Source: Fibrobacteria bacterium
Lineage (GTDB): Bacteria; Fibrobacterota; Fibrobacteria; UBA11236
Reading direction: 5' to 3'
NCBI GenBank assembly: GCA_043732185.1
Contig: JAYTHY010000055.1
Span: 1-12,864 of the forward strand
Length of the DNA stretch: 12,864 nt
In this document: piece by piece, positions 1-12,864 of the stretch
How positions within the stretch are numbered: position 1 is the first letter of the stretch
Layout of the letters: each line of letters starts with the position of its first letter
Notes under the pieces: model-generated
Database searches by the model: none
Told to the model about the DNA's origin: nothing
Seen by the model: only the letters and a program-made list of their open reading frames with translations
Translations under genes and position numbers: made by a program

Positions 1-272
1 TTTTTTTTCAATCTAAACCACCCTTTTGGAATTTTTCCATCGCCCTTTTGGAAGCCCTCGAAAGCTTCCTTACCATTACCCGTTACTACTCCATCCATAT
101 GCTCTTTAAAAGAAACAACGGCACCGATAAGACGAAACTAGTTCCAATTTTTGCATGTTGGCCGACAAAAAACCCTAATAATCGGAGACATTGGTCCCAT
201 TTGATAAGGTGATGTACCAAACAGAACACAACCGACCTTCCAATCGAATGTCATAGATTAGGTAGGCCAATT

Positions 273-869
273 TTAAAAAGTAACTACCAGCATCGCGGCT
301 CCAAAAATTACGGTGGTGGCATAACCGGAAGCCAAGTGAATCAATTTCAGTTCCTTCTGATTGTCGGCCACCAGCGTCCCAAGGATGGGTGTAATTATCA
401 TGCCCGTCAGGTGCAAAGAACCCAATAATTTGTGAGTGGAGATGGTGCTCCATTCGTTTCGTCGCACCAAAGGGGGAGGGGTGAAAATACTTAGAGCTGC
501 AGTGGTGGAATATGCTCCAATTGTCGTCCATGCCATGGCTCTGTGCATTTGCGAAAGATCATTTTTTCCATTGTACACCTTCTGTCCCAAAACCACCGTG
601 CCTACCATTGTCGCCAGGGTGACAATACCACCGAGTTGATGGAGGCCAAGCATATTACGCCGCAAATGCATTTCGTTAGTCCGTCCAGCCTCGGTAAGAG
701 GAAAGTCGAATATTTTGCGCATGGCACCATTCCTGTCCCACATTACGGACTCCATTGGCCCCATAAGATCGGGTAACAAATTCGTGGTTTGGAGGGTGTC
801 CTGGGCATGCAGAGAAACGACCCCTATAAAAGTCAAAAGGGCAATGCGCACGCCCATCAATCGGTCCAT
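273..869 (-). CDS. His-rich ~4-TM membrane protein, cytochrome b-like (putative di-heme), with N-terminal signal/anchor
   Basis: 3' part of ORF 273..1034. Likely start is ATG 869 (purine-rich GGGGGGAAGGC upstream) or ATG 857 (TGATG overlap with the upstream stop). Signal-like N-terminus (RIALLTFIGVVSLHA|QDT), then four hydrophobic helices each starting near a His: LGLHQLGG, QMHRAMAW, STHKLLGSLHLTG, LIHLASGY. CDS is solid; heme b binding is inference. Confidence 0.7.
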   Translation of the reverse strand: MDRLMGVRIALLTFIGVVSLHAQDTLQTTNLLPDLMGPMESVMWDRNGAMRKIFDFPLTEAGRTNEMHLRRNMLGLHQLGGIVTLATMVGTVVLGQKVYNGKNDLSQMHRAMAWTTIGAYSTTAALSIFTPPPLVRRNEWSTISTHKLLGSLHLTGMIITPILGTLVADNQKELKLIHLASGYATTVIFGAAMLVVTF

Positions 870-1729
870 GCCTTCCCCCCTTTTCCAATGCCAATTCCAA
901 AGCCATACCGGTAGCCCAAACCAAGTCGCCATTCCATCATCCGCAGGGCGGTCGGCGCATCGGCACCGGCAAGGAAGTTCGCATATTGCATCGAAGTGGT
1001 GTTGGTGATCAATACGTCCAAGATTCCCCTCCACAGCTGGAAACCGGCACCAAAGGCCATAGGTGGTATTCCATCAGGCGCGCGGGCGCCATATGTATTC
1101 CGGTATCCATAACCGCCTTGATGTAATGGAAAAAGTACGTCCCCGAATGTTGTGATGGAGGTTCCTTGGCGAATGATTCCCATTCCAACGGCGAACGAAT
1201 GTCTGGGTTGGACCGAAAGAATTTCCAAATTGGTATGGCTTTGTCCCAAAGCGGAGACTGCAAGCATCCAGTGATTGTCGAATAGCGAACGCTGAAGCGT
1301 CAGGGAGCCTCCGGCGGAATACCTATCGCCTTTTTCCACACCCCGGTTACGCATGGCCAAATTGGCTGACAAGACCAGGGAAATTGGTAACCTATACCGA
1401 TTTTGGCGGAGCGCCGAAATTTTTGTGCCGACTTCAGCCGATTGAAGGCGGCTTTCCCATGCCAAGGAACCCAGCACATTGGACCATATACCGGCGGACA
1501 GTTCCATTGCCGTATTTCCAAATTGATCCATTCCCAAAGCATGGCGGAACAGATTTGGCTCGCCAATGGGGGCTATAGAACCCGCGAAGCGATGGGATTC
1601 ACTCACAGAAAACTCTCCCGACTGGAGCATGGCGACAGTTGGTTGGAAAGGGAGCCGTAGCCTTTCCTGCCCAAAAACTAAAATCCCCAGCCAAGGGACA
1701 ACGGCGCAAAGGAATACGTTGCGATTCAC
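857..1729 (-). CDS. DUF5777-like outer-membrane beta-barrel protein
   Basis: 290 aa; GTG start overlaps the upstream TGA (GTGA 1726-1729). Signal peptide, QPTVAML..GEF..SHRF motif, LGMDQFGN, alternating amphipathic strands, and ITNTTSMQ..FL and LGLGYRYGF near the C-terminus resemble the DUF5777 pattern as I recall it. Confidence 0.7.
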   Translation of the reverse strand: MNRNVFLCAVVPWLGILVFGQERLRLPFQPTVAMLQSGEFSVSESHRFAGSIAPIGEPNLFRHALGMDQFGNTAMELSAGIWSNVLGSLAWESRLQSAEVGTKISALRQNRYRLPISLVLSANLAMRNRGVEKGDRYSAGGSLTLQRSLFDNHWMLAVSALGQSHTNLEILSVQPRHSFAVGMGIIRQGTSITTFGDVLFPLHQGGYGYRNTYGARAPDGIPPMAFGAGFQLWRGILDVLITNTTSMQYANFLAGADAPTALRMMEWRLGLGYRYGFGIGIGKGGKAWTD

Positions 1730-2910
1730 AGGCCGTCCACGCTATTGGGGGAGCCCCGGGTCAGCCAGTCTATCACGAGTTTGCGTTCTGCCAAGGTGAT
1801 TTGGTTTCCAAAAGATTCCGGTGGCATGGGCCCTTGCTGGTACTTCGACACGCTATCCAAATCCAGGCGCCTCAAGGTGATGCGTGTGGGGATGGACTTC
1901 CACGCCGCATAGGTGTCAATGCGTAAAGCAAAATAAGCATCGGGTTGGTCCCGGTTGAGACCGACTTCCGCGTGACAGTCCGCGCAGTATCGGTTAAGGA
2001 TATTGAAGGCTTGAGTGTATACCAATCCTTGCATGGCACCTGAAGTGACAATGCCTCCTGAAAAAACACTATCGCCCATTCCACTTCCATCCGGAGTGTT
2101 GGGCGAAAACCGATCGATCCACTCCAGCATTCGACGACGTTCCTCTAGGGTCGGTTTTTTTTCAGATGGCATACTGTCAGGCGGCATGACTTGTATGGCG
2201 GTAGGGTCCGCCGCCGTGTCAATCCGGCTTTTGATTTTCCCCCCACGTTTATGCCATTGATCATAGGTGTCGAGGATAAGTTAAAGCATGGCCTGAACCT
2301 GTTGCGGGTCCCGGCCTCCAGGTGCATGGCAATCGGCGCAATACTTACGCACGAAATTCTCCGCTTCCGGCCATCGGTACCCGACCAACCTGACTGTTTG
2401 GGCCGAATCAGCCCATGCGGCCAAATAAGCCTGGGCGCGACCCAGCACATCGTCAGGGACAGGTAAGGCCGGGGCCAAGGGCATACCGCCCCCGCGCGCA
2501 GACAGGATCAGGCGCTCTGCTCCGTAGGATTGGATTTCCTGCCAAGTATCGATTCGTATTGCTTTCCGAGCTTTTCCCGCTAGGTCACTTTTACCAAGGC
2601 TGGAATGGCAGTTGGAACAGTAGCGCCAAAATTGTCGATAGGCGGGAGGAAAGTCCATGAAGGGTGGGCCGTAACTCCAGGATCCAGTCCGCGCATCAAA
2701 GTTCGTCGTAGCCAAATCGCGCCATATTCCCAATGTGTCCAGCAGCATTCCGTTTACGGAATCTTTGAGCACGACAATTGATTTACCGTCTCCGAAGGCT
2801 AATGTATCCGAGTACAATCCGTACCGGGAATAGAGCTCGGGCGGTGAGGGCAATTGGCTACAACCCAAAAGCAAAGCGCCGATAACCATAGCGGAATGGA
2901 ACACTCTCAT
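1726..2910 (-). pseudogene. Three-heme c-type cytochrome lipoprotein (three Planctomycete-cytochrome-C-like His/Met domains) interrupted by one in-frame TAA; pseudogene or sequence error
   Basis: ORFs 2281..2931 and 1726..2187 are in the same frame. The 31 intervening codons are open (LILDTYDQWHKRGGKIKSRIDTAADPTAIQV). ATG 2910 overlaps the upstream TGA (ATGA). Lipobox LLLG|C17. CSNCH at 2605-2619, CADCH at 2326-2340 and CADCH at 1972-1986 are each followed by xxDT(Y/W), an MP(P/L) distal-Met motif and a Trp-containing helix. The TAA at 2281-2283 is codon 210 of 394. Confidence 0.85.
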
Positions 2911-3542
2911 GCCGGTGACTTTTTCTTCCACACCAAGGGTATAAGTATGTCTAAACTCATATCAGCCCAGGTCAGTCGCGAAGTGGGATAAGGGGAGAAA
3001 AGATTGTAAACCCAATGCCCACGGATGCAGAGGCCCCATGGGAGCTGGTATTGCAGCCCGCCCCCCAAGCCCATGTTGAAAAGGGTGCGCAGGGATTGTG
3101 TGGCCGCGACCTTGCCGCTGAGCCTAGACGTGGAAACCATGTCCAAGGTGTATCCTGGGGTCCATAGTGCCAAAATTTCCAGACGTTTATGGAAGGGTAG
3201 GCTGCCGTGGAAAATAAAAGGCATTTGCAAATCGGTGAAGACATCCCGACCGAACCAATCGGAAAATCCAATCGTGGCAGTGCGAAGACTCAAGCCGATT
3301 TCCAAGGGAAGCGTCATTTCACCGACGAGTAAAGAAGTGGGAAAAGCCAAACCCAAACGGGTTCCGTAGTCTCCATGAGAATTGGACGGTTTAAATGGGG
3401 CGGATCGAGACCCACCCAGCACTAATAACATTTCTGGTTCAGCTACGGAATGGCACAGTACCAAAGCCAGACAAACTAAAAACGCCTTCCCGCAACCTTT
3501 ACAACCATGAAATGCTCGCAACAATCTGAAGCAGAAACCCAT
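2907..3542 (-). CDS. Small outer-membrane beta-barrel protein (OMP_b-brl_2/PorT-like)
   Basis: 211 aa; hydrophobic signal ending HSVA|E. Strands DLQMPFIF, WTPGY and FNMGLGGGLQYQL...RGHWVYNL resemble 8-stranded OM barrels. Stop overlaps the start of the cytochrome gene. Confidence 0.6.
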   Translation of the reverse strand: MGFCFRLLRAFHGCKGCGKAFLVCLALVLCHSVAEPEMLLVLGGSRSAPFKPSNSHGDYGTRLGLAFPTSLLVGEMTLPLEIGLSLRTATIGFSDWFGRDVFTDLQMPFIFHGSLPFHKRLEILALWTPGYTLDMVSTSRLSGKVAATQSLRTLFNMGLGGGLQYQLPWGLCIRGHWVYNLFSPYPTSRLTWADMSLDILIPLVWKKKSPA

Positions 3543-3564
3543 CTATTTCATTCGCCTGGAACCG

Positions 3565-4128
3565 CTAGGGTCGCTCAATCTGGAATACCATCCGGGGATG
3601 AAGTTTGGCGGAGGGCTCACGGTACAACATTCTGCCGTCAAGTTGGGCCATCAACACTCGTGAAGAGGAGGATCCCCAACGGACCGCCGCAGGATTAGCG
3701 GTAATTTGAGTGGTCGCACCTGTAACGGTAAAGTTACGGCTTACCAAGACGTAAAAAGTAGTGGTATCGCCAGCAGCAGTGTTTCCAGGCTCACCGGTAG
3801 CCTTCTGCCAAACCCGAAGTCGAACCATGGAATTGGTCGACATGTTGGAAGGAACTATCCATGCCGTATCCATGGGCTGATTGAATCTGGCGCCCGAATT
3901 TCTCAAACCATCATAAATTACCACCCACGTGGCCGGAGCAGTTGAGTAAGAAATTTGATAACTCCCGCTATGTTCTTGCTCAATCATCCAGTGAATGGGA
4001 ACCCTTGCGCCCGCCTTAAAGGTTTCCCCTCCGGCTGGAAGCAGGGACCCTGCCACTAGATGGGCGGAGGCATCATAGACCATCAAGCCCATCAAAACAC
4101 CTAACAAGCTTTTAAAATTCTGCTGCAT
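3565..4128 (-). CDS. Secreted protein with predicted mature N-terminal His (histidine-brace-like, putative Cu-binding beta-sandwich) and short basic C-terminal sorting-like tail
   Basis: 187 aa; GGGGAG RBS upstream of ATG 4128. Signal peptide ends ASA|H23. PAGGETFKAG..V.I.W Ig-like start, further His46 and His53 (IHWMIEQEH), WIVP..VRLRVWQ, FY..SRNFTV, and a tail with LDGR. Metal binding is inference. Confidence 0.7.
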   Translation of the reverse strand: MQQNFKSLLGVLMGLMVYDASAHLVAGSLLPAGGETFKAGARVPIHWMIEQEHSGSYQISYSTAPATWVVIYDGLRNSGARFNQPMDTAWIVPSNMSTNSMVRLRVWQKATGEPGNTAAGDTTTFYVLVSRNFTVTGATTQITANPAAVRWGSSSSRVLMAQLDGRMLYREPSAKLHPRMVFQIERP

Positions 4129-4239
4129 ATTCTCCCCCGGACTTTACGGAATGTTTGATTACCAAGTGTATGGTACCAGCCTCAGAAAGGCAATCGATTT
4201 TCGTTCAGGATGGTTTTAAAGGAGTCCAAATGATTTCCT

Positions 4240-4255
4240 TGTACCAAATGGTACA
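4240..4255. promoter_or_regulatory. Perfect inverted repeat TGTACCA-AA-TGGTACA, candidate operator in the divergent promoter region
   Basis: Read directly from the sequence, about midway between the divergent starts (4128 and 4381). A related TACCA-N6-TGGTA/TGGTACCA lies at 4160-4178. The regulator is unknown. Confidence 0.4.
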
Positions 4256-4380
4256 TACCTATGGCAGGAAACATGTCGTCGGCTTAATGCTTATCACCAT
4301 GCGGTCGGAAAATATTTATTGAATCATAATGAAGCAAAATGTGATGCTTCTTTTCAGAACACATTACATGGAATCAGGAA

Positions 4381-7300
4381 ATGTTTACTGCCAGTCGTAA
4401 AGATCAAAAGCCTCGATTTCCAAATGCTATTCTGCTCCTTTTCCTTTTAACAAATTCCACGCAACTATTTGCCCATATTAACGGTGGCACAGGAAATGCC
4501 CTGCAGCTATATAGTTATCGGCTCTCTTCACCCGCCAACAAGCCGGTAATCAATGGAACCATCCTTTCCAAAACTGTAGGTAGCACTATTGGTACCGAAT
4601 CCCCGGACGAGTGGAAGGATGCCTACACGCGCGCCATCACTTTGAATGACAATACCACAGCCACAATTTTTCTCGTCAATGACGACGATTCGCTTTACGT
4701 GGCATTATTACGACCGGATAACAACAATGGAGACGGGATCGGCACCTTCCTCTACTTCGACCAAGGGATAGGTGGCGCAGGCAGTCATGATGGCCTCCTT
4801 ACGGGAAATGCCAGCACCGTGCGCAACGAGGCAGGTTATGGGATAATTAGACAGGCAGGCTCTTTCATCAATCAGGATCTTTCTTGGACCGGTACGGCGT
4901 GGTCCGCGGACGCGGATGGTGCCACAGATTTCAATGGGGCGGCCTCGATTCTCGGCAGTGCCACCAAAGTGGAAGCTTTCGAATTCGCCATACCTTTACA
5001 TAATTCCAAGGGGTTTTCCTCGGGAAATGCGGACCTGCAGGTTACATCCTTGCAACAGGAACTGGGACTGTATATACGCGTTTCCCGTGGGGGTGCCGAT
5101 TGTGATTCCTGCTACTGGAACCAAACCAACGGCAACTCGGGTGAAGCCCAGACCGGGGTGGGATGGGCGGATGTGCAACTCAATGTCTCCCGAAACTTCA
5201 CCACTTTTTATAGCACTTTCGCCAAAAACGGAAATCCAACCGTGGATGGTTCCATCACTGAAGATGCCTGGCGCGGCAGCTACCGTCGGGATATCTACTT
5301 GACCAACTTCAATGGCAAGGTTCTGCCCACCACCGTTTACTGCGTTCAAAGCCATATCGACAAGACTATTTTCCTGGGTCTAAAGGTCAGGGATACATTA
5401 AGCAACGCTTCCGATTCCCTCCAGGTCTATTATGAGGAAAAATCCGGTGATAATACCACGGCTCGCGACTACCTGCTCGAAACAGGTGCGGAAGATGCAG
5501 TCAGTGCGAAAGGCGCCACGGCCCGAGATTTGCAATGGAACGGCACCGCGTGGGTGGCAGATGTCGAAGCGGCCGATACCCATCAAGCCAGCGGAACCTT
5601 TGCGGCATCTATGCACCAGTATGAAATGCGTATTCCTTATCAAGGAGGGGCCCAGGATATCGGGGTTACAGATAATGGCCTGCCGGGTTTTTTAATACGC
5701 TATCACGATGCGGACCAGCCTGTCGGTAGTCAAGATTTCTACTGGGAGTACACGGTCAATTCCGATGCGGTCCGCGTAAATCAACAAGCCACACCTGCAA
5801 TTTTTGTTACATCGGGCTGGGCGAATTTCCAATTAGGGGCACCGTATACTCAATTGGTTTTTCCTTTAGATAGCGCCGCTGTTGAAGGTGCTGTCAACCT
5901 CCGCCTTTATGCCGAAGATGAAGATGGGGTAACGGGCGTGGACTCGGTAAAATATTTCCGGGCTTCGGATACCACCTCCAAAACCAAACTCACCAAGATT
6001 GCCAATACAGGCGAATGGTCCGGGGCCTGGAACGTGGGCAATCTGACAAATGGCCTGGACACATTGATTTTCCGCACCTTCGACAATGATGGGGTCTTCG
6101 TGGATCGGCTGGTGGTTTTGACGATCGCTAACGGAAACTCACCGGCAGCTCCACCTACCATTGCCTTTGTTTCACCTTTAGCGGGCACCACTTTGTCTGG
6201 TCTACAGACCTTTCAGTTTACAGCTAACGGTGGTGGCGGTGTCATTCGTAAGACCTATGTGATTATCGATGGCGCGGATACGCTGGCTACCACTACCGCG
6301 TCCACTCATGTTCTCAATACCGTTCCTTTGGTGGAGGGTGCGCATACCCTTCAATTCCTGGCATACAATACGAACGGTGCCAAGGCCCAAACGCAATTTT
6401 TAACTTTCCAGGTTGCCAACAGTCCCACGGTATCCTGGCTGAGTCCGGCCGGCGGTACGGTGGCGGGCGGACGCCTCATTCTTGACTATGACGCAACTCC
6501 CCTGGGCCAGGCTACGATTGTATCCGATTCTCTTTGGCTCGACGGCCAAGGCTATGCCGTTCTCAATCTTCCCGATGGGCCCGGCACCTTGGATATATTC
6601 ACGCTGGCTGAGGGCGCCCACACCTTCCAGGTCAAGACTACGGACAATGCCGGTAAGACAGGCTTTTCGAAGGAAGTGACGCTTTTGGTGCGCAACGGTC
6701 CTTGGGTCACGCTCACTTCGCCCCTGGGTAACGCCAACGTGTCCGGTAAGGTGGCGCTGGCCTACCACGACAGCACCTTGGTTTTGGCAACCGTGGCCGC
6801 CGATTCCCTGTTGTTGAATGGCAAAGGCTATCAAAGTCTATCGCTAAGCGGTGTGGATACTCTGAACAGTTCGGTTTTGCTGGACGGGGAGTATACATTG
6901 CAGGTCAAGACCACGGACAGCCATGGGCATGTGGGTTATTCGTCCCTGATCACGGTGCTGGTACGCAATAACCCTTTAGCCAGAATCGACAGTCTGCTGG
7001 CGGACTCGACGGTGTCGGGCACTCTTGTCATCCGCTTCGCTGTATCTGCCGTGGCCCCGGCGACAGTGGCCCAGCGCCTCGTGTCCATTGATGGGGCAGG
7101 CTTTCGTGTTACCTCAGGAACATCTACGGATACCTTGGACACGCGCAAGCTGAGCGAAGGGGCGCATACGGCGGAAGTGAAAATGGTGGATAGCCAAGGC
7201 AAGGAAGCGTATTCGCGCCTGGTTAAATTCAACGTTCGCAATGCGCCTAATGTGAGCATCCAGTCGCCTGCAGTGGACGTGTTTGTGCGAGGAATTGTAA

Positions 7301-8910
7301 CGGTGCGTTTCACGGCCTCGGCAGTGGCTCCCGATAGCATCGCCAAGGCGGAGATATCGATTGGGGGAGGAGATTGGATGTCGACGACGACAGATTCGAC
7401 TTATGCCCTGGATACGCGATTGTTCAAGGATGGAGATCTTCTCGTTCAAATCCGGGTAGTCGATGGAAGTAGCAAGGCGGATACAACCCTGGCACGGGAA
7501 ATCGTGGTGGACAACGCGGCACCGAAGGTCAGTTATCCAACTGTGACCTACGGCGAATGGGTTCAGGGGCGGTCCGGGGCAAGATTATTGGTCACGGCTC
7601 AGGCGCTGGATTTCGGTTCGGGAATGAATCGCGATTCGGCAATGGTTCTTTCTTCAAAAGTGTTGACCCTGGATTCGGCGGTTCTGATGCGCGATGATGG
7701 TCTGGCTGCGGATGAAGTAGCCGGAGATAATGTATTCAGCGCCTACCTTTCCCTGATGGCGGATACAGCCGGACCCATTCCCTTTGTATTAAGAGGGCGT
7801 GATGTCCTGGGAAATGACACGATAGTAGTGGGTGGCGTAGTACTCGACAGAACCGCTCCCAGGGTTTACCTGAATGCAAAACCCTTGCCTCAAGGTGCCG
7901 ATAGTTTGAATGGTACCGTTTATGTACCGCGAATCATACTTAAAGGCAATTTTTCAGATGACCAAGGTTCTGGACTCTCGGCCGTGACGTTGGTTTCCCT
8001 AAATGGCAACGGACAACATATTATGAACAGTCCGGTAACGCTTCCAGTTTCACATCCAAGCTTCAGCCGTTTGCTTTCCCTGGTTCCCGGTCTGAATACA
8101 CTGATGTTGATCGTCGTCGATAAGGCTGGAAACGTGGACACTGCACGAGCCGCCATCACCTATGTAGTTCCAAAGACTACCCAGGTGGTTGGAAGCGATG
8201 GGGGACTAGTCGTCAGTCCCAACGGAAGCAGTATCCGGATTCCCGCCGGCGCGTTGAATTTGGCTAAAGAAATCTCCATCCGGCCCGTCGACCCATCCAT
8301 GGAGGTGAAACCGCTGGATGCAACTTTAAAACTGCTAGGGATCCCACAAGAATTTGGCCCCGACCATACCGTATTTCGCTTACCCGCCATCCTGACTATC
8401 ACCTATTCGGAAGCGGATTTGGATCCCAACCAAGATGGCACCGCCGATATTCAGCCTGAAGATCTGAATATTGTATTCTGGGATGGACGAACGTGGGTAA
8501 GGGCAGGTCAAGCGGAACTTGACAAGGCAAACCATACCCTGACGGTTGCAGTAAACCATTTTACCATGTTCGATTTGGCCGAAGACAAGTCGGTGGTTCC
8601 TACCAAAGTCGTGGCCTTTTGGAATTCAAATCCCATACGCCAAAGCCAAGGTGGCGTCTTCCGGTTTAAACTTCCGGAACCGGGATTTGTTTCATTGCAC
8701 ATCTTGGACATGAGCGGCGACTTGGTCAATACCTTGATTCCAGAGCGTACCACTCGTGGAAATGGGGAATGGAGCTGGATTTGGAACGGCGAAAATGTGT
8801 CCGGACGATTTGCCGGGGCCGGATTATACCTATACGTTTTCCGGTTTGAACCGGCCAGCGGAAACGCCCAAACTTTGATCCGGAAACCCCTGGGTCTGGT
8901 CAAGAAATAA
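4381..8910 (+). CDS. Large secreted surface protein: two CBM9/DOMON-like domains, about six tandem bacterial Ig repeats, choice-of-anchor-X-like domain, Ig, ZU5-like domain, FlgD-Ig/T9SS-type C-terminal domain
   Basis: 1509 aa; signal peptide ends QLFA|H32. Head repeats PVINGTI..DEWKDA..FEFAIPL and PTVDGSITEDAWRGS..YEMRIPY. Ig repeats PT(I/V)..SP..G..G..L.EGAHT..V. LMRDDGLAADEVAGDNVFSA; GGLV..IPAGAL..FGP..NHFT; tail VSLHILDMSGDLVNTL..WNGEN.SGRFAGAGLYLY. Confidence 0.85.
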   Translation: MFTASRKDQKPRFPNAILLLFLLTNSTQLFAHINGGTGNALQLYSYRLSSPANKPVINGTILSKTVGSTIGTESPDEWKDAYTRAITLNDNTTATIFLVNDDDSLYVALLRPDNNNGDGIGTFLYFDQGIGGAGSHDGLLTGNASTVRNEAGYGIIRQAGSFINQDLSWTGTAWSADADGATDFNGAASILGSATKVEAFEFAIPLHNSKGFSSGNADLQVTSLQQELGLYIRVSRGGADCDSCYWNQTNGNSGEAQTGVGWADVQLNVSRNFTTFYSTFAKNGNPTVDGSITEDAWRGSYRRDIYLTNFNGKVLPTTVYCVQSHIDKTIFLGLKVRDTLSNASDSLQVYYEEKSGDNTTARDYLLETGAEDAVSAKGATARDLQWNGTAWVADVEAADTHQASGTFAASMHQYEMRIPYQGGAQDIGVTDNGLPGFLIRYHDADQPVGSQDFYWEYTVNSDAVRVNQQATPAIFVTSGWANFQLGAPYTQLVFPLDSAAVEGAVNLRLYAEDEDGVTGVDSVKYFRASDTTSKTKLTKIANTGEWSGAWNVGNLTNGLDTLIFRTFDNDGVFVDRLVVLTIANGNSPAAPPTIAFVSPLAGTTLSGLQTFQFTANGGGGVIRKTYVIIDGADTLATTTASTHVLNTVPLVEGAHTLQFLAYNTNGAKAQTQFLTFQVANSPTVSWLSPAGGTVAGGRLILDYDATPLGQATIVSDSLWLDGQGYAVLNLPDGPGTLDIFTLAEGAHTFQVKTTDNAGKTGFSKEVTLLVRNGPWVTLTSPLGNANVSGKVALAYHDSTLVLATVAADSLLLNGKGYQSLSLSGVDTLNSSVLLDGEYTLQVKTTDSHGHVGYSSLITVLVRNNPLARIDSLLADSTVSGTLVIRFAVSAVAPATVAQRLVSIDGAGFRVTSGTSTDTLDTRKLSEGAHTAEVKMVDSQGKEAYSRLVKFNVRNAPNVSIQSPAVDVFVRGIVTVRFTASAVAPDSIAKAEISIGGGDWMSTTTDSTYALDTRLFKDGDLLVQIRVVDGSSKADTTLAREIVVDNAAPKVSYPTVTYGEWVQGRSGARLLVTAQALDFGSGMNRDSAMVLSSKVLTLDSAVLMRDDGLAADEVAGDNVFSAYLSLMADTAGPIPFVLRGRDVLGNDTIVVGGVVLDRTAPRVYLNAKPLPQGADSLNGTVYVPRIILKGNFSDDQGSGLSAVTLVSLNGNGQHIMNSPVTLPVSHPSFSRLLSLVPGLNTLMLIVVDKAGNVDTARAAITYVVPKTTQVVGSDGGLVVSPNGSSIRIPAGALNLAKEISIRPVDPSMEVKPLDATLKLLGIPQEFGPDHTVFRLPAILTITYSEADLDPNQDGTADIQPEDLNIVFWDGRTWVRAGQAELDKANHTLTVAVNHFTMFDLAEDKSVVPTKVVAFWNSNPIRQSQGGVFRFKLPEPGFVSLHILDMSGDLVNTLIPERTTRGNGEWSWIWNGENVSGRFAGAGLYLYVFRFEPASGNAQTLIRKPLGLVKK
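6417..7439 (+). repeat. Copy 1 of ~1.02-kb direct repeat (Ig repeats 3-6 of the first surface protein)
   Basis: Aligns without gaps to 9587-10609 at a constant offset of 3170; about 92 mismatches over 1020 nt by manual count (~91%). Confidence 0.95.
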
Positions 8911-8912
8911 TG

Positions 8913-8918
8913 AGGAGG
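8913..8918 (+). promoter_or_regulatory. Shine-Dalgarno AGGAGG for the second surface protein
   Basis: Perfect AGGAGG 6 nt upstream of ATG 8925. Confidence 0.75.
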
Positions 8919-8924
8919 TCAGCC

Positions 8925-11900
8925 ATGCATCTGAATCTTTCCAGAGCGGTTTACGCTGCCTGCCTGGTATGCCTCCTGGCGATAATACCGGGTCAGGCTA
9001 CTCCGACCATACAGGTTATATATCCCCGTAGTGGGGCAGAAATCGAAGGGTCCGTTAACTTGCGGGTCTTTGCGTATGAAGGCTTGATTCAAACCCAGAC
9101 CTCCCAAATTGATACGGTAAAGTTTTTCCGCAAAGCGGATTCCGCAGTGAAAATATCTCTTATCCGCATTGCCTCTTCGGGGGAATGGTCCGGAGTTTGG
9201 AATGCCGCAGGTCTAACCTCTGGGCTTGATACCTTAGTATTTCGCGCTATCAATAGTGGGGCTGCGACCCGGACCGATAGTAGCATAGTCGTCACCATTG
9301 TCAGCAATGGTACTGTCGCACTTCCAACCGTTGAAATCACCTCGCCCACGGCTGGTGGTATCATTTCCGGCTTACAAACCATTGCCTTCACAGCCACCGC
9401 CGGAGCCGGCACGATAGCCAATCGGGAAATATCCGTGGATGGCGGTGCATACTTAGTTACTTCAGCCGCTTCCAGCCACGCACTAAATACCGTGCCATTG
9501 ACTGAAGGCAGCCATACGGTGCGGATTCGCATTACAAATACGAACGGCGCGGCCATGGAATCCCGAATCGTCAGCTATTTCGTAGTCAACAGTCCCACGG
9601 TATCTTGGCTGAGTCCGGCCGGCGGTATCGTGGCGGGCGGACGCCTCATCTTCAACTATGACGCAACTCCCATGGGCCAAGCTACGATTGTATCCGATTC
9701 TCTTTGGCTCGACGGCCAAGGCTATGCCGTTCTCAATCTTCCCGATGGGCCCGACACCTTGGATATATTCTCGCTGGCAGAGGGCGCCCACACCTTCCAG
9801 GTCAAGACTACGGACAATGCCGGCAAGACAGGGTTCTCGAAGGAAGTGACGCTTCTGGTGCGCAACGGTCCTTGGGTCACGATCACTTCACCCCTAGGTA
9901 ACGCCAAGGTGTCCGGGAAAGTGGCGCTGGCCTACCATGATAGCACCGTGGTTTTGGCAACCGTGGCTTCCGATTCCCTGTTGGTGAATGGCAAAGGCTA
10001 TCAAGGGCTATCACTAAGCGGTGTGGATACCCTGAACAGTTCCGTTTTTCTAGACGGGGAGTATACTTTGCAGGTCAAGTCCACGGACAGCCATGGCCAT
10101 GTGGGTTATTCGTCCCTGATCACGGTGCTGATACGCAATAACCCTTCAGCCAGTATCGACAGCCTGCTTGCGGACTCAACGGTGTCGGGAACTCTAGTCC
10201 TTCGCTTCTCGGTATCAGCCGTGGCCCCGGCGACAGTGGCCCAGCGTCTCGTGTCCATCGATGGGGCAGGATTTCGTGTTACCTCCGGCACTTCGACTGA
10301 TTCCTTGGACACGCGCAAGCTGAGCGAAGGGGCGCATACGGCGGAAGTGAAAGCCATAGATAGCCAAGGCAAGGAAGCGTATTCGCGCCTGGTGAAATTC
10401 AACATCCGCAATGCGCCCAATGTAAGCATTCAGTCACCGGCAGTCGACGTGTTTGTGCGGGGAATTGTAACGGTGCGCTTCACGGCCTCGGCAGTATCTC
10501 CCGACACCATTGCTCGAACAGAGATATCGATTGGGGGAGGAGATTGGATGTCGACGACGACTGATTCGACCTATACCCTGGATACGCGATTGTTTAAGGA
10601 TGGAGATCTGCGCATTCAAGTACGAGCGATTGATGGCAATGGAAAAGCCGCCCAGACCCTAGCCCGTGAATTTGTAATCGACAATACCGCTCCGAAAATT
10701 AGCTATCCAGGTGTTGTCTATCCAGACAATGCGCCTTCGGCCCGAAAAGGGACCCAAATTTTTGTAACCGCCCAAGGTTTGGATTTGGGTTCCGGCATGG
10801 CGAAGGATTCGGCCATGGTCCTAGTTTTCCCGGACTTCTCAAGCGGGCCCATGATCATGCTCGACAATGGCCAGGGCGGCGACAAGGTCGCGGGAGATAA
10901 TGTCTACACAAAATCCCTGGATATTGATGTGGACAAAAGCGGAAAGGTCAATTTCACCGTAACCGGTAGCGACGCCTTGGGGAATAGCCACGTGGTTACC
11001 GCAACCTTGACCTTGGACAATATTTCTCCGGTACTCAGTTTTATCCTCGAACCGGCTCCCGGCAATATCGTCGGTTCGGTCTCCGGTGTAGTTTACGTTT
11101 CCCGTATTTTAATGCAAGGCGCATTCGCCGATTCGGGAGGGGCCGGTATGAAAAGCCTCAGCCTAGTTGTGAGAAATGACAGCGGCGACCATGTGAACAA
11201 CAGTCCGGAGGTTATCCCCTTATTGGATGGCATGTTCCGGCGTGTGGTAGAATTGGTTCCTGGTCCTAATCGATTGTACTTGATCGGCATGGACCAAGCC
11301 GGGAATCTGGACACAGTTTCCGGGCTGGTTACTTACGTGGTACCTAAAGAAACCCAGGTAGTCACCGGATCAGGTGGTGCGGTTATAGCTCCGGATGGAA
11401 GCGGTGTTTCGGTGCCAGTGGGAGTGCTCGACCGGGCACGGGAAATAACCGTTACGGTAGTTGACAAATCCTTGGAGCCAAAACCATTGGATGACAATGT
11501 GCGACTGATGGGAGTTCCCCATGAATTTGGACCTGATGGACTGACTTTTTCATCCCCCGTGACTCTCACCTTGCCCTACACGTCGGCGGATATGGATCCC
11601 AACCAAGACGGCACGCCCGATTTCGACGAAAGCAAACTCACCATCGTATTCTGGAACGGCGCTTCATGGATTAAGGCCGGCGATGCCAAAATCGATATGC
11701 TGCATAAGACGGTGAGCGTAGCCGTGAACCATTTCACATTGTTCGACATAGCCGAGGATGTTTCACCACAGGCCTCGAAGGTTGTAGCGTTCTGGGTACG
11801 CAATCCCGTACCCGGGAGTTCAGATTTCATTTTTAAAGTCCCGTCTACGGGCCAGATTTCCCTTTACCTGTTGGATATGGGCGGTGACATTGTAAAAACG

Positions 11901-12074
11901 CTGATACAACCTGGAACAAGTGTTTCTGCAACCGGTAGTGTGCGTTGGGACGGCAGCAATGTGCGTGGGCGCTTCGCCGGCGCAGGGTTGTACGTATATG
12001 TTTTTAAATACAAATCAGACGATGGGAAAGTGGAGAAATTGATCCGCAAGCCCGTTGGCCTGGTAGGAAAGTAA
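8925..12074 (+). CDS. Paralogous secreted surface protein lacking the CBM9/DOMON-like head: Ig repeats, choice-of-anchor-X-like, ZU5-like, FlgD-Ig/T9SS-type C-terminal domain
   Basis: ORF 8910..12074. ATG 8925 is preferred because of the AGGAGG (1049 aa); ATG 8910 overlaps the upstream TAA. Signal ends PGQA|TPT. Collinear with residues ~487-1509 of the upstream protein (MLDNGQGGDKVAGDNVYT, DPNQDGT, AVNHFTLFD, GRFAGAGLYVYVF, LIRKPVGLVGK). Confidence 0.85.
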   Translation: MHLNLSRAVYAACLVCLLAIIPGQATPTIQVIYPRSGAEIEGSVNLRVFAYEGLIQTQTSQIDTVKFFRKADSAVKISLIRIASSGEWSGVWNAAGLTSGLDTLVFRAINSGAATRTDSSIVVTIVSNGTVALPTVEITSPTAGGIISGLQTIAFTATAGAGTIANREISVDGGAYLVTSAASSHALNTVPLTEGSHTVRIRITNTNGAAMESRIVSYFVVNSPTVSWLSPAGGIVAGGRLIFNYDATPMGQATIVSDSLWLDGQGYAVLNLPDGPDTLDIFSLAEGAHTFQVKTTDNAGKTGFSKEVTLLVRNGPWVTITSPLGNAKVSGKVALAYHDSTVVLATVASDSLLVNGKGYQGLSLSGVDTLNSSVFLDGEYTLQVKSTDSHGHVGYSSLITVLIRNNPSASIDSLLADSTVSGTLVLRFSVSAVAPATVAQRLVSIDGAGFRVTSGTSTDSLDTRKLSEGAHTAEVKAIDSQGKEAYSRLVKFNIRNAPNVSIQSPAVDVFVRGIVTVRFTASAVSPDTIARTEISIGGGDWMSTTTDSTYTLDTRLFKDGDLRIQVRAIDGNGKAAQTLAREFVIDNTAPKISYPGVVYPDNAPSARKGTQIFVTAQGLDLGSGMAKDSAMVLVFPDFSSGPMIMLDNGQGGDKVAGDNVYTKSLDIDVDKSGKVNFTVTGSDALGNSHVVTATLTLDNISPVLSFILEPAPGNIVGSVSGVVYVSRILMQGAFADSGGAGMKSLSLVVRNDSGDHVNNSPEVIPLLDGMFRRVVELVPGPNRLYLIGMDQAGNLDTVSGLVTYVVPKETQVVTGSGGAVIAPDGSGVSVPVGVLDRAREITVTVVDKSLEPKPLDDNVRLMGVPHEFGPDGLTFSSPVTLTLPYTSADMDPNQDGTPDFDESKLTIVFWNGASWIKAGDAKIDMLHKTVSVAVNHFTLFDIAEDVSPQASKVVAFWVRNPVPGSSDFIFKVPSTGQISLYLLDMGGDIVKTLIQPGTSVSATGSVRWDGSNVRGRFAGAGLYVYVFKYKSDDGKVEKLIRKPVGLVGK
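9587..10609 (+). repeat. Copy 2 of ~1.02-kb direct repeat
   Basis: Ungapped match to 6417-7439, in the same codon phase relative to its gene. Confidence 0.95.
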
Positions 12075-12087
12075 GGAGGGTCACTCT

Positions 12088-12864
12088 ATGTATAAGATCC
12101 GTACCAAAAATATTTCTGTGGTCGCCATGGCATTTTCTGCCACGGTTATATTGGGAAAACCTTTGGATCTCCAGATGGGTTCGCGCGGCTTTGGAATGGG
12201 AGGGGCCTTCGTCGCCATTTCCGACGATGCCAGCGCCACCTATTGGAATCCAGCCGGATTGTCCCAGCTATCCTCCCTGACGTTGTCGGAGACGAACTGG
12301 ATCCTAAAGGATGTTTCCAATGTAAACGTCAATTATTTGACCGGAGCGATTCCAATTTCCAAGGTGGGTACGGTATCTGGTGGTTGGTTGATGCAATATG
12401 CCAATTTGGAACAGGGCGAACCGGGAACGGCTCTGCATTCCGAAAGCAGTTGGTATGAACACGCTTTTTCCTTAGCTGCCGGTCGTGAATTGTGGAAGAA
12501 ACTTTGGATATTCGAAAACACCAGTCTCGGCTTCAGCCTGGATAGATACGTTCTCAACAGTGGAGAACTAAATGGGGCAGGAACCGGATTTGATCTAGGC
12601 TTTCTAACCCGCTTTCCATATGGAATGCGCATGGGTCTCACGATGCGATCCTTAGGCGCGGACATGATGGGCGAAAAAATCGATCCCGAGTACCGAATGG
12701 GGTTTGGATATGTGTGGCTGGCCCGAGATCAGCAACGGATAACCGTGGCAATGGATGTGGCAACTAAGGAAAACATTGAATACAGCAATTCCAGTGATGG
12801 AGTCAGCCGAAACTATCGCGGGTTTGTGGGAGTGGAATATGCCTTCCATCAGCAGGACTGGACG
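12088..12864 (+). CDS. PorV/PorQ-like (FadL-superfamily, UPF0164-type) outer-membrane beta-barrel, 3'-truncated by window edge
   Basis: Absent from the ORF track because there is no stop in the window. AAGGAGG at 12073-12079, ATG 12088, open for 259 codons: MYKIRTKNISVVAMAFSATVILGKPLDLQMGSRGFGMGGAFVAISDDASATYWNPAGLSQL..., the G.R..GMGGA..A..DD.SA.YWNPAGL signature, followed by barrel strands (GTGFDLGFL, YRMGFGY, FVGVEY). Confidence 0.85.
   Translation, partial: MYKIRTKNISVVAMAFSATVILGKPLDLQMGSRGFGMGGAFVAISDDASATYWNPAGLSQLSSLTLSETNWILKDVSNVNVNYLTGAIPISKVGTVSGGWLMQYANLEQGEPGTALHSESSWYEHAFSLAAGRELWKKLWIFENTSLGFSLDRYVLNSGELNGAGTGFDLGFLTRFPYGMRMGLTMRSLGADMMGEKIDPEYRMGFGYVWLARDQQRITVAMDVATKENIEYSNSSDGVSRNYRGFVGVEYAFHQQDWT

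Follow-up and report, generated by a model that had tools for sequence, protein, structure and literature searches.

A small cytochrome c–DUF5777 gene cluster of Fibrobacterota as a candidate extracytoplasmic electron-transfer module

Five open reading frames (ORFs) on the minus strand, which we call A to E, occupy positions 273-4128 of the stretch of DNA analysed here, a 12,864-bp window that is one whole contig (C55) among the 139 that make up a 4.46-Mb metagenome-assembled genome. The host is an uncultured Fibrobacterota bacterium, and the runs that contain the stretch are sediment metagenomes. With confidence that is about even, we read B-C-D-E as an extracytoplasmic electron-transfer module of a small Fibrobacterota clade and A as a lineage-specific add-on. 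An earlier note on this DNA had proposed that electrons run from quinol through a cytochrome b-like protein, a trihaem lipoprotein and a barrel to a copper protein at the cell surface. Conserved motifs, recurrence in relatives and redox neighbours speak for part of that route, whereas the set of five genes and the intactness of C did not hold up and the surface placement of A is weakened.

Results

Arrangement of the gene cluster

The cluster is compact, and all of its products are exported or membrane-bound, as the earlier note had said. Called as ORFs, gene A (3565-4128, 187 amino acids) is separated from B (2907-3542, 211 amino acids) by 22 nt (3543-3564). The stop of B and the start of C (1726-2910, a putative trihaem c-type lipoprotein whose frame is split by a stop codon) overlap in ATGA at 2907-2910, and the stop of C and the start of D (857-1729, 290 amino acids, a DUF5777 protein with a signal peptide) overlap in GTGA at 1726-1729. 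D in turn runs into E (273-869, 198 amino acids, a putative b-type cytochrome with four membrane helices) at ATGGACCGATTGATG (855-869), where D stops at 857-859 and E starts at 869 or 857. These junctions between five co-oriented genes are all as first claimed from the sequence, and the potential metal or haem ligands that had been seen in three of the proteins are conserved at sequence level in C, E and A. Scans of the stretch returned 2 promoter-like sites where chance predicts 5.4, and 7 terminator-like sites where it predicts 5.5, both at chance level, so it is the overlaps that suggest co-transcription of the genes. Among the window genes there is no metal regulator, P-type ATPase or stress regulator.

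Recurrence of the cluster in relatives

An independent 3.5-kb metagenome contig (L191) carries B-C-D-E followed by the start of a YceI gene, all on one strand, with identities of 56, 57-61, 48 and 65% and an intact C with three haem motifs. Locus L192 has B-C-E without D, and the gene upstream of B there encodes a 610-amino-acid protein that is not A. In L016, B-C lies on one strand and two copies of E with YceI lie on the opposite strand, again without D. Three other loci (L009, L010 and L012) hold a B-like gene, C, D and then a Rieske protein with a twin-arginine translocation (Tat) signal in the position of E, L014 holds a 5-haem protein, D and a Rieske protein, and L011, from an unpublished genome (G011), shows C-D at a contig start. 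A DUF4399-repeat lipoprotein adjoins the module in L009, L010 and L011, and genes for extracytoplasmic function (ECF) sigma factors adjoin it in L009, L010 and L012. B-C is therefore the constant pair and D is usual and dispensable, while E, with or without YceI, and the Rieske protein look like alternative partners. At L016, in the place of D after C (6778-8187, minus strand), there is a 469-amino-acid protein of the glucose/sorbosone dehydrogenase family (Pfam GSDH, 131 bits).

Two features of these loci count against the electron-transfer reading in its full form. D is missing from two of the four B-C-E loci (L192 and L016); B-C-E thus does not require the DUF5777 barrel. A was found beside B-C-D-E only in the window and is absent from L192, L009, L010 and L016, where the gene upstream is visible; A is not a conserved member of the operon. 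The co-occurrence of all five genes elsewhere, which the earlier note had set as a test of its proposal, was found for B-C-D-E in L191 and not for A, and E is replaced by the Rieske protein in other relatives.

A may then be a mere neighbour, the unit being a B-C-(D)-E periplasmic chain without a surface copper protein and A one member of a multi-copy secreted immunoglobulin (Ig)-like family. We regard this as a real possibility that is somewhat less probable than the add-on reading. Besides its absence from the relatives, the A family is multi-copy in 14 of 14 sister genomes of the genus compared with 2 of 14 for DUF5777, and it is a gap, not an overlap, that separates A from B. That gap is, however, just 22 nt on the same strand, and A-like genes are independently associated with another cytochrome/barrel-type redox cassette, described below. 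An orthologue of A (P0005) and one of B (P0209) come from the same source and each list a longest contig of 1713 bp, an unconfirmed hint that suggests, and does not prove, that the two genes are adjacent there. A metagenome scan for further A orthologues gave 236 pattern matches, none of them confirmed.

Gene C, a putative trihaem lipoprotein with an in-frame stop

The product of C has a lipobox (LLGC, with Cys17 at 2860-2862) and three CxxCH motifs at residues 98, 191 and 309 (2605-2619, 2326-2340 and 1972-1986), each followed by a conserved segment of the type (L/I)D(T)(Y/W)...MPP/MPL. All three motifs are kept in the three full-length relatives that were aligned (3/3), and a shorter relative from L012 has two. 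The relatives are single ORFs of 362-392 amino acids, and single ORFs with three CxxCH motifs are found in L009, L010, L016, L191 and L192. When window proteins were scanned against Pfam and NCBIfam, with matches listed at E <= 0.1, C fell just below the cut-off of Cytochrome_CBB3 (25.6 bits, cut-off 27); its cytochrome matches were all sub-threshold, and no multihaem family passed its Pfam cut-off. A profile built from four full-length relatives and the two-haem L012 protein was compared with solved chains, and every match at E <= 1 was a c-type cytochrome, the best being CcoP (E 7.3e-4). C thus has the conserved CxxCH of an exported c-type cytochrome, and its motifs and lipobox together predict a trihaem c-type cytochrome lipoprotein. 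The genome also contains two matches over cut-off to cytochrome c assembly proteins of the CcsA/CcmF type.

Counting against a working module in this assembly, the frame of C is interrupted by an in-frame TAA at 2281-2283 (minus strand, codon 210), which divides it into 209 and 184 codons of one frame. The stop lies inside a conserved L.LDTY stretch after the second haem motif, in an alignment column that is His or Ile in relatives, and the portion after the stop lacks its own signal peptide. We compared assembled contigs (not reads) of four runs from near-identical strains over 1-4400. At place 2281, contigs of three of the four runs (X3, from another study, X4 and X5) have G for T, which turns the codon into TAC (Tyr), so C is intact elsewhere in the population, in near-identical strains. 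The contig of the probable source run (X1) keeps the T at a depth of 10.2. This assembly thus represents a nonsense allele of C or, less likely, a consensus error, and given the TAA the module may be switched off in this strain. Readthrough or an alternative genetic code at the TAA was rejected because the near-identical strains carry an ordinary TAC there. The earlier description of C as a triheme lipoprotein is consequently right about the motifs and the lipobox and not about a single open frame.

The same stop codon would also fit a locus in decay, in which the nonsense codon in C has made the module non-functional in this strain, whatever its role elsewhere. This is possible, at about the same modest level as the neighbour explanation for A. 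The agreement of the probable source contig with the TAA, at that depth, and the lack of a signal peptide on the downstream half favour it. It is opposed by the fact that the change is a single base, that the remaining genes are intact and that the other three runs read TAC; contigs alone were compared, so an assembly or consensus error or a mixed source population is also possible.

A sequence related to C was noticed elsewhere in the same genome. At C114:1189-2094 (locus L190) there is a 150-amino-acid lipoprotein with the motif GHIHVFLD and a weak DUF6130 match, which resembles the DUF4399-repeat protein of L009. Directly after it, 1768-2094 of C114 has 44% identity over 111 amino acids to the third haem domain of C, and the filtered ORF list contains no open frame there on that strand.

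DUF5777 and its redox neighbours

D belongs to the DUF5777 family (PF19089), matching the Pfam model over residues 28-256 at 38.9 bits against a cut-off of 23.1. A six-frame search of the genome (37 bits) found D to be the sole DUF5777 copy, and its orthologues have 27-48% identity. DUF5777 was found in 41 of the 296 Fibrobacterota genomes searched, 38 of them over cut-off, and in 2 of the 14 other genomes of the window's genus. Since D passes the cut-off of a membrane beta-barrel domain, the D part of the earlier claim of two outer-membrane barrels is supported. A profile of the D family gave no meaningful match among solved chains, and a full-text literature search returned no paper that names DUF5777. 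The X3 contig has six extra bases (TTCCAA, plus strand) after place 882, an in-frame addition of two codons at the Gly-rich C-terminal end of D.

A neighbourhood analysis of DUF5777 homologues, which had been suggested as a check, revealed a persistent link to small redox proteins. The 26 Fibrobacterota loci comprised 19 of 20 fetched regions (L131 gave no DUF5777 ORF), six earlier loci and the window. In 21 of them DUF5777 lies beside a cytochrome c, a Rieske protein, a cupredoxin-like protein or YceI, and the remaining five have none of these. Immediately upstream, 12 of the 26 have a co-oriented gene for a CxxCH protein. A Rieske gene is no more than two genes away in nine, plus L010 (whose 142-amino-acid Rieske ORF was hidden by an overlap filter), and a cupredoxin-like protein or YceI adjoins DUF5777 in six and two loci, respectively. 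These counts are not of independent events and overstate independence, because the loci come mostly from genomes that are mutually related, a point to be set against the strength of the association.

The adjoining cupredoxin-like proteins (L138, L139, L141, L142, L143 and L146) are ~217-227 amino acids long and have a C..H....M motif. They come near the thresholds of Pfam Copper-bind (plastocyanin/azurin; 20.2 against 21.2 bits) and Por_Secre_tail (23 against 27 bits), and may be secreted blue-copper proteins; in three loci they occur together with a Rieske protein.

B, the other proposed barrel of the earlier claim, has a signal peptide and is an exported protein of a very small family, 10 proteins with the query set included in a profile search of 5.8 billion clustered proteins. 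It belongs to no Pfam or NCBIfam family, and a sequence comparison with the Protein Data Bank (PDB) found no relative of solved structure. The possibility that B is a DUF5777 relative was rejected at an hhalign probability of 0.15. Orthologues of B precede C in L009, L010, L016, L191 and L192.

Gene E and its genomic partners

The AlphaFold model of E (mean predicted local distance difference test, pLDDT, 90.2) has an N-terminal signal/anchor helix, a conserved periplasmic segment and four long membrane helices (60-99, 103-128, 142-168 and 172-197). In an alignment of 24 sequences, His77 (639-641), His146 (432-434) and His178 (336-338) are invariant and His153 (411-413) is kept in at least 90%; these four residues, all encoded on the minus strand, sit on three of the four helices. 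E has 52 homologues, none of them named, two of which carry a precomputed PF13301. Two leads, and no more than leads, point to a family: a weak match to Pfam DUF4079 (21.3 bits, cut-off 31.4) and an atlas neighbour cluster auto-named 'putative Cytochrome b561 domain-containing protein' (score 0.96). At E <= 0.1 there is no match to Pfam CybB/Ni_hydr_CYTB or CopD, and an E profile found no match among PDB sequences. We describe E as a putative b-type cytochrome, for which the genomic context is stronger evidence than the Pfam and atlas leads.

That context was read from 80 loci of species-representative genomes (Fibrobacterota, Ignavibacteriota, Bacteroidota, Chloroherpetonaceae and others). 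In 71 of the 80, the next gene after E has the same orientation and encodes a protein of ~182 amino acids, and in 33 of the 80 a Rieske protein of ~138 amino acids precedes it; the members of these neighbour groups scanned by Pfam matched YceI at 75.6 bits and Rieske at 43.5 bits. The window's genome has three E paralogues, of which the copy on C30 is directly followed by YceI and the copy on C61 is not, and contig C93 has a second YceI gene close to its end. In the 272 bp that follow E in the window (1-272), where the contig ends, none of the three minus-strand frames is an open frame able to start YceI.

Two observations concern the position after E. The X1 contig, 7560 bp long, continues for ~1 kb past the first base of the window (record positions 1-1020), so the gene after E is present in public data. 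In L192 the YceI position directly after E (7793-8149, plus strand) holds a 118-amino-acid protein with a twin-arginine-like signal, a lipobox and the motifs GAHSH and GHSH.

Gene A and the DUF3570 cassette

A begins with a signal peptide, with predicted cleavage after ASA, which would leave His23 (4060-4062) as the mature N-terminus; a second His, His53, lies at 3970-3972. A has no Pfam or NCBIfam family at E <= 0.1, including LPMO_10, CopC, Por_Secre_tail and FlgD_ig, and only four close homologues, while a profile search of 1.84 billion representatives returned 322 proteins at E <= 0.001. Some of these are large proteins that match from profile position ~29 onwards, in up to 21 repeats and without the N-terminal His; they match Kre9_KNH and Big_7, and of six scanned two reach the Por_Secre_tail cut-off and one more lies just below it. 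An alignment of 36 rows was made from A, three close homologues and 32 single-stretch hits of 169-247 amino acids, with 22-66% identity to A. His23 and His53 are each kept in 35 of the 36, and the same protein, P0173, is the exception in both, with Gln and Asn. Because the 32 hits had been chosen by eye, the 13 remaining single-stretch hits (<= 290 amino acids, among 150 listed) were also read as a check, and have the N-terminal His in 13 of 13 and the second His in 12 of 13. Altogether 48 of 49 homologues keep the N-terminal His and 47 of 49 the second, strong conservation that bears out the earlier description of A as His-brace-like. The covarying pair has the appearance of a histidine brace and would form one shared metal site, and A is probably copper-binding.

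The model of A (pLDDT 78.8) is an Ig/fibronectin type III (FN3) beta sandwich, Kre9/KNH-like, with a short C-terminal tail of low confidence. The best solved sequence match is CopC (6nfq, 6nfr), a weak one (E 0.011) that covers the signal peptide and the first strands only, with the His of A aligned to the first mature His of CopC. One homologue of A (P0092) has a sub-threshold match to LPMO_10 (20.4 against 23 bits), and the genome has no LPMO_10 match. That A is a lytic polysaccharide monooxygenase (LPMO) is not supported by Pfam or fold search. Its tail keeps a short RVL.AQ.DGR piece of the sorting domain found in longer homologues. A literature search on the histidine brace together with type IX secretion found no related paper.

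The A family occurs in 82 of 296 Fibrobacterota genomes and in each of the 14 sister genomes of the genus, frequently as several tandem copies. Strong A-like loci (L147-L170, read over 1.5 kb on each side; L162 is from the unpublished G011) hold at least one gene of a cassette for a dihaem cytochrome c, DUF4266, DUF3570 and a thioredoxin-like protein in 14 of 24 cases, compared with none of six weaker loci. In wider regions the A-like genes are convergent with, divergent from or inside this DUF3570 cassette. The cassette loci are mostly of one genus; a genome of another family (G027) has the same arrangement (L181). The window's own genome has the cassette at C129:12596-15258 (597-3961 of locus L189), encoding a dihaem cytochrome c (217 amino acids), a DUF4266 protein (81 amino acids, ending GGGCGC), a DUF3570 protein (394 amino acids) and a thioredoxin-like protein (181 amino acids), and convergent to it lies an A paralogue (C129:15265-16029, 254 amino acids, 34% identity to A).

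PMC8238504 describes DUF3570 as flavinylated by ApbE and as part of an extracytosolic electron-transfer system to which DUF4266 and a thioredoxin-like protein also belong. The DsbD/thioredoxin-like/DUF4266/DUF3570 system (Meheust et al. 2021, PMC8238504) resembles the loci found here in that A-like paralogues adjoin the DUF4266, DUF3570 and thioredoxin-like genes. It differs in that the cassette lies outside the window, the Fibrobacterota form carries a dihaem cytochrome c, and ApbE is encoded elsewhere, on another contig of the genome. Only the A family links the DUF3570 cassette to the window operon.

On the other side of A, across 252 bp and divergent from it, the window encodes two paralogous giant surface proteins (4381-8910 and 8910-12074, plus strand; 1509 and 1054 amino acids) with Big_7/Big_13 Ig repeats, a choice-of-anchor X domain, ZU5 and a C-terminus of the FlgD_ig type IX secretion system (T9SS) type. 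They are followed by a PorV/PorQ-family barrel (12088-12864, plus strand) that is truncated by the contig end.

Discussion

Comparison with known systems

Porin-cytochrome conduits (MtrAB/MtrCAB, PioAB/MtoAB and Pcc) resemble the cluster in having a barrel gene directly beside a c-type cytochrome gene, a redox partner in the operon and exported products. The earlier note had held that no part resembles the Mtr/Pcc families, and indeed no porin-cytochrome family is matched at E <= 0.1 in Pfam or NCBIfam. In contrast to the decahaem MtrA-type cytochromes, C has three haem motifs and is a lipoprotein; in place of a large MtrB/PioB-type porin there are D, which at 290 amino acids matches DUF5777 only, and B, which at 211 amino acids matches no family and is an additional exported protein in the cluster. 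A small barrel with one haem, Cyc2, can reportedly act as a redox enzyme. Here C and D are separate genes (joined by the GTGA overlap) and D has no CxxCH, so the cluster is set apart from Cyc2 by its gene architecture. At best, by analogy, the cluster works like a porin-cytochrome system; it is a member of neither the Mtr/Pio/Mto group nor Cyc2.

For E the relevant comparison is with LcoA-BcnA, an arrangement whose E. coli counterpart is yceJ-yceI. According to PMC9113575, a membrane cytochrome b561 is encoded upstream of a YceI lipocalin; a small His-bearing helical membrane protein likewise lies upstream of YceI in the 71 of 80 E-family loci and in L191, there behind B-C-D. The window's E is unlike LcoA in that it has no YceI in the 272 bp left, no CybB/Ni_hydr_CYTB match and a model with four helices, and in that its gene is coupled in translation to those of a barrel and a cytochrome c, a linkage not described for LcoA in the abstract of PMC9113575.

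A shares with CopC and the LPMOs of AA9, AA10 and AA11 a mature N-terminal His, a second conserved His, a beta sandwich and a c-type cytochrome nearby; CjX183 of Cbp2D, a small c-type cytochrome, reduces bacterial LPMOs according to PMC8981238. Unlike these, A has no LPMO_10 or CopC Pfam match, in a genome without LPMO_10, and unlike CopC its second His comes 30 residues after the first. A further difference from known histidine-brace proteins is its Kre9/KNH-like Ig domain, which is also found in internal repeats that have no N-terminal His.

Proposed mechanism

In the mechanism we propose, E would lie in the inner membrane, where its four conserved His may hold b-type haem and exchange electrons with the quinone pool, taking the position of the cytochrome b561 that is paired with YceI lipocalins. 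The genome encodes haem-copper oxidases, which makes a respiratory quinone pool plausible. C, as a lipid-anchored trihaem cytochrome c, would carry electrons via the periplasm to the outer membrane. There the D barrel, and perhaps B, could let a small substrate or a partner outside the cell reach the haems. A would be the likeliest end partner or metal carrier in this lineage, with a brace-like His23 and His53 that probably hold copper. In sister lineages a Tat-exported Rieske lipoprotein would stand in place of E. All cofactors, membrane locations, protein contacts, the direction of electron flow and the substrate are here predictions from sequence.

Beyond the stop codon and the missing genes, several observations weigh against this proposal. 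E reaches no Pfam family cut-off, and its fold matches (Foldseek against the PDB and a wide VIA search) are generic four-helix bundles, among which cytochrome b561 (4o6y) ranks only 47th (Z 10.2) and is not distinctive. His146 and His153 are just 7 positions apart along a single helix, and two-haem proteins usually space their ligands differently. At ~250 positions, the DUF5777 domain would appear too small to sheathe a cytochrome as MtrB does. The fold matches of A are generic Ig/FN3 domains; by Foldseek, AA11 (9exj) ranks 25th and AA9 (4qi8) 28th, at E ~3e-3 and among antibodies, and the wide fold search with A has no LPMO in its top 50. A is without a full T9SS C-terminal sorting domain and may remain periplasmic, which weakens the surface part of the earlier note's surface copper protein.

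A role in the handling of copper or another metal is the next explanation to be weighed, and we consider it rather unlikely. A would then be a CopC-like Cu(II) binder of the periplasm, E a His-rich metal transporter of the inner membrane in the role that CopD has for CopC, B and D outer-membrane metal channels, and C a reducer of Cu(II) or Fe(III) for uptake or detoxification. The N-terminal His and beta-sandwich model of A fit such a role, as do its best solved sequence match to CopC with the His aligned, the conserved His on the membrane helices of E and the thioredoxin-like genes (AhpC/TSA, Redoxin) that A-like genes adjoin. TlpA-type thioredoxin-like proteins serve copper-centre assembly. 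DUF3570 systems are also tentatively tied to iron assimilation, for 25 clusters, in PMC8238504. However, the CopC match is weak and falls partly over the signal peptide, E has no CopD match and has YceI and Rieske proteins rather than metal carriers as usual partners, the DUF5777 neighbours are electron carriers (cytochromes c, Rieske or cupredoxin-like proteins) in 19 of 26 loci, and the window has no metal regulator or P-type ATPase.

Envelope oxidative-stress defence, in which E and YceI would act like LcoA-BcnA against lipid peroxyl radicals with the cytochrome and barrels feeding or draining them, is less probable still: the YceI pairing of the E family and the description of LcoA-BcnA as a cytochrome b561/YceI detoxification pair in PMC9113575 favour it, whereas no YceI gene begins within the 272 bp beyond E, the genome has two E paralogues besides that of the window, a C30 copy that keeps its own YceI directly downstream and a C61 copy that no YceI follows, E falls outside the CybB/LcoA Pfam family, and the window has no stress regulator.

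Significance

What is new for the electron-transfer module is its Fibrobacterota form, which includes B and has E coupled in translation to the barrel, together with the exchange of E for a Rieske protein, the two covarying His of the A family and the association of that family with the DUF3570 cassette, and the TAA/TAC polymorphism, by which single strains may carry a switched-off copy. The redox context also makes the frequent DUF5777 testable.

A bolder reading, which we think a long shot, is that the A family comprises new histidine-brace copper proteins on a Kre9/KNH-like Ig fold, fed by dedicated extracytoplasmic electron-transfer cassettes: here the cytochrome c/DUF5777 cassette with a b-type membrane protein and, at other places in the same genomes, the dihaem cytochrome/DUF4266/DUF3570/thioredoxin-like cassette. 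At the outer membrane or outside it, they would carry out oxidative chemistry of an LPMO-like kind or metal-redox chemistry, powered directly by the respiratory chain of polymer-degrading Fibrobacterota. Independently of that reading, the A family is a concrete candidate for a new metal site of the histidine-brace kind, with two independent genomic links to electron-transfer cassettes. If the B-C-D-E module works as proposed, it would be a very small connection, neither Mtr nor Cyc2, between the quinone pool and the outer membrane, and it occurs in a phylum known for degrading polymers and not for respiring metals.

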